Below, in pieces: positions 29,769 to 30,578 of a stretch of DNA of 54,395 nucleotides. This stretch comes from a virus. The first letter of the stretch is position 1; each line of letters opens with the position of its first letter. Under the pieces are notes generated by a model, which worked only from the letters and a program-made list of their open reading frames with translations, was not told the origin of the DNA and ran no database searches. Both the position numbers and the translations under genes were made by a program. The stretch lies in the UHGV virus genome UHGV-0107341, one strand, 5' to 3'.

Positions 29769-30578
29769 ATGCAAGAAGAGAAACAACACTACCTCTACGT
29801 TCTGGTGCCAGAGAACGGAGATACTTTTAAAATCGGCATTTCATGTGGTCCATTGGCACGGTTTAAAGGGCTACAAGTGAGTCCCGATTTTGCGCTTTCA
29901 CGGGTCTATCGTGGTACACGTTTGGCAATGGTTAATCTTGAGCGGGCTTTACACGCAACCTTTTTCCCCTGGAATGCGCCGTGGGAGAAAAGCGTCGGTG
30001 GCGGGCATACTGAATGGTTTACACGAGAGTGTCTTGATAAGGTTTTGGCTCATATCGAATATCTAAATGATATGTGGGGAGGGATTCTCGAGCGCATTAA
30101 GTCGAATGATTTACTTCAGCGTCCAGTAGATGCTGCTTGCTCTTTCGAAAAAGAGCTGGATGTTACTTCTATCGTGACTTTCAAAGATGACGCAGGAATG
30201 AGGGACGTGGCTTATGTCTCCATATCTGGCTATGAACCGGACGCGATCCGCGCTCAATGTGAATTGCTGAAAGCAATGTTTATGCTTCGGACTAAATATC
30301 CCTGGGATACAGGGCGGGTGTGCTTCCCTATGGAAGAGTTAACCGCCACCATTGATTCCCAGCTTTACCACGATAATCCAGAGAAGTTTTTTAGCCTTTT
30401 AGCCGGTAATGGGCTTAACTGTGTGTCCGGGCTGGGGCGAAGTAGAATCCAACATGCCTCGCTCTTCGGTCCCTTCTTTTACGATCGACACGGGTACTTT
30501 GAGGCTGAACTTCCGGCGCTTACGCGTGCTATAGATACTATCGATTTCGAACGATTATTCGCTGCTCTTAGCAAATAA
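29769..30578 (+). CDS. T5orf172-domain (GIY-YIG-like) protein with unknown C-terminal domain
   Basis: N-terminal YLYVLVPENGDTFKIGIS...RFKGL...GGGHTEWF matches the T5orf172 signature (YVL...KIGxT...R...EWF). Confidence 0.5.
   Translation: MQEEKQHYLYVLVPENGDTFKIGISCGPLARFKGLQVSPDFALSRVYRGTRLAMVNLERALHATFFPWNAPWEKSVGGGHTEWFTRECLDKVLAHIEYLNDMWGGILERIKSNDLLQRPVDAACSFEKELDVTSIVTFKDDAGMRDVAYVSISGYEPDAIRAQCELLKAMFMLRTKYPWDTGRVCFPMEELTATIDSQLYHDNPEKFFSLLAGNGLNCVSGLGRSRIQHASLFGPFFYDRHGYFEAELPALTRAIDTIDFERLFAALSK

Follow-up and report, generated by a model that had tools for sequence, protein, structure and literature searches.

Why does a nuclease-like gene stand between the replication control region and the partition operon of a phage-plasmid closely related to P1, when P1 itself has no gene there? 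The question is raised by the virus genome UHGV-0107341, analyzed here as a stretch of 54,395 nucleotides (the window), which belongs to the RCS47/SJ46/JL22 (p0111) type of P1-like phage-plasmids and is 99% identical to RCS47 over positions 28500-31000. The gene begins with a domain of the T5orf172 family, and an earlier reading of the same DNA, made from the letters alone (the sequence-only reading), had taken it for cargo dropped into the P1 maintenance core. The comparisons presented below place it instead at the right end of an alternative replicon cassette, strictly linked to the initiator gene of that cassette, repA'. Our favored reading, held tentatively and at a probability of about 45%, is that it encodes a two-domain, site-specific nuclease of the homing endonuclease gene (HEG) type that marks, and possibly promotes, exchange of the p0111 cassette. 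With the same reserve, we suggest that the gene stands outside the replication and partition machinery and rides on the right edge of the cassette, where the latter recombines into P1-like backbones.

The order in canonical P1 (NC_005856) is oriR/incC, repA, incA, approximately 190 bp and then the par promoter, Ppar, and the slot holds no gene; that of P7 and of the Cronobacter phage JK004 is likewise without one. The sequence-only reading was thus correct in having incA of P1 followed by the par promoter. The corresponding region of the window is composed as follows.

28258-28591, forward strand: oriR-like region of the p0111-type replicon, with five direct iterons (28412-28510) and repeat families D1/D2; similarity to P1 decays across its left boundary.
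28592-29476, forward strand: repA', the p0111-type initiator of the Rep3 family (Pfam Rep3_C and Rep3_N; blastp; annotated as RepA or RepB in RCS47 and plasmids).
29479-29738, no strand assigned: downstream iteron array, the analog of incA, with two forward (29479, 29503) and four reverse (29596, 29658, 29690, 29720) iterons.
29769-30083, forward strand: T5orf172 (GIY-YIG superfamily) nuclease domain, amino acids (aa) 1-105, with motifs Y8-L-Y10, F20-K-I-G23, R31, E58/H62 and T81-E82-W-F.
30084-30578, forward strand: orphan, fast-evolving C-terminal domain, aa 106-269, and stop codon; tentatively a winged-helix-like DNA-binding module.
30586-30609, forward strand: intrinsic terminator of the T5orf172 gene, with a 5-bp GC stem, a 5-nt loop and a T run.
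30645-30746, forward strand: right junction, where P1 homology resumes at 99.4% from 30645, then Ppar and its operator upstream of parA.
30747-32961, forward strand: P1-type parA (30747-31943) and parB (31960-32961), identified by Pfam and aa identity to P1; outside the swapped cassette.

On the left, similarity to P1 falls from approximately 28260, at the end of upfA, and is gone by 28386. On the right the return of homology is sharp, 66 bp past the stop codon of the T5orf172 gene, and the 500 bp following 30647 are identical in P1. RepA' shares 42% aa identity with RepA of P1, and ParA and ParB share 99.7 and 100% with their P1 counterparts. From these boundary positions, it follows that the swapped unit consists of iterons, repA', iterons, the nuclease gene and its terminator, and the T5orf172 gene is the rightmost element of a cassette of about 2.3 kb (approximately 28258/28386-30644) that replaces the IncY replicon. 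The flanks of IncY P1 are 98.5-99.7% identical to those of the window, and the flanks of other p0111-type elements 92-100%; because flank identity does not follow replicon type, the p0111 cassette appears to have recombined between P1-like backbones. The IncY and p0111 types account for 31 and 24, respectively, of 55 P1-like elements in a study that proposed no function for the gene (PMC9603915). The nearest RepA relative from outside, of Providencia (53% identity), is followed by 1.1 kb with no ORF (open reading frame) of at least 60 aa. The gene is hence not universal in P1-family replicons, being absent from P1, P7, JK004 and the Providencia relative, with null alleles common in intact replicons. 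The partition module has a history of its own: among p0111-type elements parB (31960-32961 in the window) is mosaic, with 93-100% nucleotide identity between the window and four loci (L006, L007, L031 and L050) whose adjacent parA stays at 98-100%, and in P7 a repA of the IncY type is found with a par operon encoding a ParA of only 58% identity, which together indicate that replicon and partition modules recombine independently. Further upstream of the replicon, a PAAR-motif protein (the upfC homolog, 26144-26428) and upfB (26380-27225) are arranged as in P1.

The association of the gene with its replicon holds across the databases surveyed. It was found in 401 PLSDB plasmids, always at 90% identity or more, and repA' in 398, with the same breakdown by organism in both cases: mostly records of about 95 kb from Escherichia, Salmonella and Shigella. 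repA' lies upstream of the gene in 44 of 44 IMG/VR loci. Among 5,426 complete Escherichia coli genomes, 412 carry the gene, as does one of the GTDB species representatives; seven of the 421 places at which it occurs in the complete E. coli genomes are chromosomal, and may be integrated P1-like elements. Five p0111 replicons (L006-L010) are typed as "IncHI1B" by MOB-suite via PLSDB, which disagrees with the naming in the P1-like literature.

The identity of the N-terminal domain was established by profile searches. The ORF check of the window returned, as had been claimed, a gene at 29769-30578 on the forward strand with an ATG start and a 269-aa product, and the T5orf172 signature that had been noticed from the letters was borne out by PF10544 (T5orf172, GIY-YIG clan), which matches aa 8-85 with 26.9 bits (E 6.9e-6; profile positions 2-87 of 101) against a curated Pfam cut-off of 20 bits. 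The PHROGs family phrog_681, "endonuclease," matches aa 4-100 (E 7e-9), and the uncharacterized phrog_2876 matches over the full length. In an alignment with 1ywl, a GIY-YIG protein, Y8-L-Y10, F20-K-I-G23 and R31 fall on its GIY, YIG and Arg motifs, in a match that is itself not significant (E 0.16), and by motif inference E82 would be the catalytic Glu. Outside the P1-like elements, the nuclease domain has its nearest relatives, none more than 37% identical, in genes called "endonuclease" from lytic phages of Vibrio, Salmonella and Klebsiella; a profile of the N-terminal domain recovered only fragments of the family from a word-indexed database. RefSeq already annotates the gene as "GIY-YIG nuclease family protein," and it is in print as "unknown gp57." Elsewhere, it is labeled "terminase small subunit" in phage phi456 (OR339795.1), almost certainly a misannotation, and is left unannotated in three records named "P1" (MH422554, MH445380 and MH445381).

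A second lineage allows the gene to be compared over a much greater distance. The only diverged relative (P0004), 44% identical, lies on a 95.7-kb Logan contig, L003, in the same slot between repA and parA. Relative to the gene-less JK004, homology in L003 resumes approximately 100 bp past the stop codon, just before parA. The ORF call of P0004 includes a 41-aa N-terminal extension (L003:6001-6123) that represents translated iterons (repeated AYSQH), and the most likely start is M42, which aligns with M1 of the window. RepA, ParA and ParB of the two lineages are 84, 89 and 67% identical, and the two domains of the nuclease 64% (aa 1-105) and 32%. Synonymous sites are saturated at this distance; dN/dS was therefore dropped and the comparison limited to dN, the values of which are 0.07 for parA, 0.13 for repA', 0.26 for parB, 0.28 for the nuclease N-domain and 0.72 for its C-domain. 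Residues Y8-L-Y10, F20-K-I-G23, R31, E58/H62 and E82-W-F are the same in both lineages. Given that position and sequence have been kept in a lineage with saturated synonymous sites, the ORF is a real gene and not a chance one. Word-indexed, exhaustive profile, GTDB, and plasmid/phage tblastn searches added no lineage or context beyond p0111 and the one contig L003; P0014 and P0016, which looked like relatives at about 70% identity, are copies of the gene with frameshifts.

The C-terminal half, which had been said to match nothing, did prove to be an orphan. Its approximately 165 aa have no match in Pfam, NCBIfam, PADLOC or the PDB sequences, and a profile built from it retrieved five matches from 1.84 billion representatives, all of them members of the same family or fragments thereof. 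The AlphaFold models of the full-length protein (pLDDT 62) and of the C-terminal half alone (61) are weak, a result of an alignment of only two to three sequences. Fold matches of the half are to DNA-binding winged helices, all of them near noise and from low-confidence models, and a structure search of BFVD returned nothing significant, with a COG5527 Rep protein at a probability of 0.72. A winged-helix-like DNA-binding domain is thus suggested tentatively by the models, and the description "Rep-like" is to be treated as a lead only. These observations bear on the possibility that the protein is a domesticated conflict nuclease resembling Odn (ICP1 gp88), whose T5orf172 nuclease is combined with a RepA_N-like domain and cleaves the origin of the PLE satellite in an iteron-dependent manner, with E180A abolishing activity (PMC8263062). 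The C-terminal domain would then recognize the origin or iterons of a rival replicon, which might be a phage satellite, a P1-like plasmid of the IncY type or some other plasmid with iterons, for the T5orf172 domain to cut. Such a nuclease would serve the p0111-type element as a means of exclusion or incompatibility and give it a gain during co-residence or superinfection. Besides the Odn precedent, fusions of the T5orf172-Rep type have arisen recurrently, E. coli phages included (PMC10448857), the gene of the window directly adjoins iterons within a replicon module, and a fast-evolving C-terminal domain would fit an arms race. A Rep-derived domain was nevertheless rejected at the sequence level: hhalign against four RepA proteins gave a probability of 0.1%, and there is no relation to RepA', RepA of P1 or any other Rep, nor any outside homolog among the 1.84 billion representatives, whereas the identity between Odn and its RepA model is 42%. 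The winged helix is, moreover, a ubiquitous fold, PADLOC provides no match, and the inactivated copies described below (about 18%), with weak constraint, imply that any benefit would be small or episodic. We regard this explanation, which ranks second, as unlikely.

A defensive role had also been proposed, and could take the form of a single-gene anti-phage or abortive-infection nuclease that would guard the lysogen against unrelated phages. P1-like elements are rich in defense and exclusion genes, phage-plasmids often exchange defense systems (PMC10879196), and a nuclease domain joined to a variable, "sensor-like" C-terminal domain would suit such a role. Yet no family of the PADLOC-DB v2 defense models was matched at E up to 1, and searches of NCBIfam, PADLOC and the PDB sequences with the whole protein were empty. 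The gene is known from two lineages only, both on one replicon type, with none in other defense contexts, and it is weakly constrained and frequently inactivated. The proposal therefore found no known defense family behind it, and we consider it very unlikely.

Evidence of another kind comes from variation among close copies, scored as distinct variants in up to 49 gap-free copies. Synonymous and nonsynonymous variants numbered 49 and 3 in repA' (per-site ratio 0.02), 75 and 1 in parA (0.00), 49 and 14 in parB (0.08), 29 and 13 in upfA (0.12), and 34 and 38 in the nuclease gene (0.33). The ratio of the last is thus 15-100 times those of repA' and parA, and no nonsynonymous variant touches its motif residues. 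Nucleotide diversity of the gene is approximately 0.011, like that of repA' and parB, and neither a diversity trough nor a gradient of co-conversion was seen around it, a result that is uninformative; the nuclease gene differs from its neighbors in the kind of change and not in its amount. The most diverse segment among p0111-type loci is the left flank (ppfA/mlp, 27238-27853), at a nucleotide diversity of 0.053.

Inactivation of the gene is recurrent. Nine of the 49 copies (about 18%) are interrupted by stops, representing five distinct nonsense alleles. In IMG/VR, 35 of 44 loci are intact and stops occur at aa 68, 112 and 228, the last being the allele of phage SJ46 itself. Frameshift alleles were found in four further cases (P0012, P0014, P0016 and L006), and at one locus (L053:3295-5057; UViG_2645727563_000002), a 1.76-kb element of the IS200/IS605 type, encoding a 389-aa TnpB-like ORF and a 141-aa Y1 transposase, follows nucleotide 294 of the gene and replaces nucleotides 295-523. 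A 197-aa chimera on a 108-kb contig of an E. coli plasmid (P0005; ABN773_26325) joins 79 unrelated N-terminal residues to residues 106-224, and hence reflects a rearrangement within the gene. With disrupted alleles persisting in otherwise intact replicons, including SJ46, the gene is dispensable. An addiction function, which the sequence-only reading had also entertained, or an essential maintenance role fits poorly with natural null alleles this frequent and with the elevated ratio.

Such decay invites the view that the gene is merely a passenger, a relic from the ancestral p0111-type replicon that has neither present function nor drive and is kept by its linkage to repA'. The strictness of that linkage, the five nonsense alleles together with several frameshifts and the insertion, the 38 nonsynonymous to 34 synonymous variants set against 3 to 49 in repA' and 1 to 75 in parA, and the want of a clear promoter or strong ribosome-binding site (see below) are all as would be expected. 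On the other hand, a ratio of 0.33 falls short of that expected under neutrality, some 80% of the copies are intact, and a functionless ORF of 810 bp would not outlive synonymous saturation with its motifs and position kept at 44% aa identity. Because the ratio is 0.33 and not 1, and because the ORF has outlived that saturation, some selection on the protein persists, and we hold the passenger view to be quite unlikely.

Expression signals of the gene are sparse. The gene does start just after the last iteron, as had been stated, but the distance of about 25 bp given then was too short: the last iteron ends at 29733-29738 and the gap to the ATG at 29769 is 30-35 bp. The 14-nt iteron core TTGACTRTANGCGA, searched with up to two mismatches, has 13 matches in the window compared to 2 expected, a number reached by none of 100 shuffles; five iterons are upstream of repA', one is within it and six are downstream. 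The one within, a perfect core (TTGACTATAAGCGA) at 29196-29209 in the coding sequence of repA', is separate from both arrays. The mixed orientation of the downstream array is also seen in the annotated incA of P7. A terminator of the gene's own before parA was correctly recognized at the outset: the hairpin GCCCC-TGAAC-GGGGC followed by TTTTTTGTG at 30586-30609 has a folding energy of -11.9 kcal/mol (z -2.5). Ppar of P1 (locus 3517-3545) corresponds to approximately 30664-30692 of the window. A sigma-70 promoter belonging to the gene was sought and rejected, as the DNA ahead of the ATG contains none and the lineages have no such conserved site in common; the sole promoter-like match sits inside the T5orf172 ORF, and the count of such sites is not above that of shuffles. 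Conserved sequence upstream is limited in the two lineages to the last iteron and the block AGTGGT..ATATG, and the Shine-Dalgarno sequence is weak. An Rfam scan of the cassette was empty at E up to 0.1. Since there is no conserved sigma-70 promoter, and no terminator-like site in the interval between repA' and the gene, the likeliest source of transcript would be low-level read-through across the iterons from the RepA-autoregulated repA' promoter. The suggestion that the gene is under iteron or RepA influence is therefore plausible.

This placement between incA-like iterons and Ppar might also be explained by a nuclease-independent accessory protein that binds DNA, such as a regulator of the CapR kind or one comparable to the autorepressing I-TevI, with Ppar or the downstream iterons as its site of action. 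CapR is a repressor related to the DNA-binding domain of T5orf172 proteins, and reuse of HEG-derived proteins as repressors, with I-TevI autorepression cited, has been described (PMC8096241); the winged-helix fold matches of the C-terminal domain would agree with such a role. P1, P7, JK004 and the replicon of the Providencia RepA relative nonetheless function without such a gene, plasmids that appear stable commonly carry natural null alleles, and the catalytic motifs that are conserved would be needless for a pure DNA binder. We judge this account very unlikely.

The features assembled above are those by which HEGs of this family have been recognized. Putative HEGs of the T5orf172 type are variably present, often decaying, found beside essential genes and "occupy boundaries of genetic exchange" (PMC10448857). 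The T5orf172 gene is present in RCS47/SJ46/JL22-type elements and absent from P1, P7 and JK004 at one and the same site; it lies beside essential genes and at an exchange boundary in both lineages (66 bp from resumed homology with P1, and about 100 bp for L003 with JK004); and it has degenerated repeatedly by stops, frameshifts and insertion. Our preference for the HEG-type reading derives from this agreement with every genomic signature of HEGs save autonomous mobility, combined with a domain order like that of I-TevI and the Seg proteins. A C-terminal domain that evolves fastest is what would be expected of a specificity domain. The lytic-phage genes to which its nuclease domain is most closely related outside P1-like elements are, furthermore, of the group that Barth, Dunham and Seed (2023) treat as T5orf172 HEGs (PMC10448857).

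From this pattern, we infer nuclease activity, DNA binding by the C-terminal domain, a target and possibly drive, which could operate as follows. The nuclease would be weakly expressed, probably by the read-through described, and would cut a site in gene-less relatives, most likely in or next to the IncY-type replicon or in the incA-Ppar spacer. If a p0111-type genome is resident in the same cell, the break would be repaired from it through the conserved oriR-left and Ppar/parA flanks, and the nuclease gene would be copied along with the non-homologous replicon next to it. Where the target is absent, the nuclease gene would drift and decay, as HEGs do. A bolder version, which we think quite unlikely, has the protein as an origin- or replicon-directed nuclease that cuts the rival IncY region. 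It would thereby act as a weapon of incompatibility and at the same time drive "replicon homing," with repair of the break carrying the entire p0111 cassette (repA', iterons and nuclease gene) into the rival P1 backbone; the C-terminal domain would be a new specificity module of winged-helix type and possibly a very distant Rep-like fold.

Several points weigh against the HEG-type reading. The gene was never found with an IncY repA and never apart from repA' in PLSDB or IMG/VR; movement is seen only at the level of the cassette and not of the gene independently. Of the T5orf172 HEGs described, 87% carry Zn-finger DNA-binding domains (PMC10448857), and in the ICP1 examples the Zn-finger domain is N-terminal to the nuclease (PMC8096241), whereas the window protein has the reverse order of domains and an orphan as its second. 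With 31 IncY to 24 p0111 elements among 55 (PMC9603915), the two types are nearly balanced and there is thus no sweep. Any target would have to lie within IncY-specific DNA, given that the 500 bp to the right of the junction are identical in P1. Finally, the selection that persists on the protein could equally reflect a function beneficial to the host or to the element.

The matter is of interest because P1-like phage-plasmids, divided into IncY and p0111 types, are common carriers of genes for extended-spectrum β-lactamases (ESBL) and other resistances. Escape from incompatibility is the only explanation offered to date for replicon swapping among them (PMC10879196); an HEG-type nuclease at the exchange boundary would provide a concrete mechanism for the swapping of replicon modules in phage-plasmids. 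Were "replicon homing" to be true, it would account for the alternation of two replicons without homology on P1-like genomes that are nearly identical, and the HEG-type reading, if correct, would extend the idea of nucleases at exchange boundaries from lytic phages to plasmid replicons. Were the gene a drifting passenger, the value would be limited to correct annotation, as with the "terminase small subunit" label. Homing endonucleases are not mentioned in the phage-plasmid literature searched, and the account of T5orf172 genes of lytic phages as HEGs by Barth, Dunham and Seed (2023) does not mention P1 or plasmids (PMC10448857). Added here are the boundary position in two lineages, the strict linkage to the replicon, the orphan, fast-evolving C-terminal domain and the pattern of relaxed selection and decay.

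Four known systems provide a measure of the gene. With the T5orf172 HEGs of the ICP1 type, it shares a nuclease domain with a second, quickly diversifying domain attached, a variable presence among close relatives, frequent frameshifts and stops, and a boundary position beside essential genes, and homing is putative in both. It differs in that its nuclease domain is N-terminal and its second domain an orphan, with no CapR, DUF723 or DUF4397 Zn-finger, and in that the ICP1-type genes belong to lytic phages, whereas that of the window occupies a single genomic site in the replicon module of a temperate phage-plasmid. Odn likewise combines a T5orf172 nuclease with an appended DNA-binding domain (predicted in the window protein), is tied to an iteron-containing origin and keeps the catalytic Arg and Glu. 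Its DNA-binding domain is, however, N-terminal, recognizably RepA_N and 42% identical to RepA of PLE, whereas the C-terminal domain of the window protein lacks similarity to any Rep protein; moreover, Odn is carried by the attacking phage and the window gene lies inside a replicon cassette.

The GIY-YIG homing endonucleases of T4, I-TevI and the Seg type (cited in PMC8263062 and PMC10448857), have an N-terminal catalytic domain of about 100 aa followed by a C-terminal DNA-binding region. This order of domains is that of the window protein, and further likenesses are a free-standing, intergenic location between conserved genes, weak expression signals, and marker exclusion or co-conversion of adjacent DNA as the proposed effect; the differences are that the window protein belongs to the T5orf172 subfamily and has no detectable similarity to the zinc-finger and helix-turn-helix (HTH) modules of I-TevI. 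The IncY replicon of P1 and P7 has the same plan as that of the window, with origin iterons, a Rep3-family initiator, control iterons of mixed orientation and a P1 par operon, but its iteron sequence is another, its RepA is 42% identical, and it is the replicon of the window that adds a gene for a 269-aa nuclease and a terminator ahead of Ppar.

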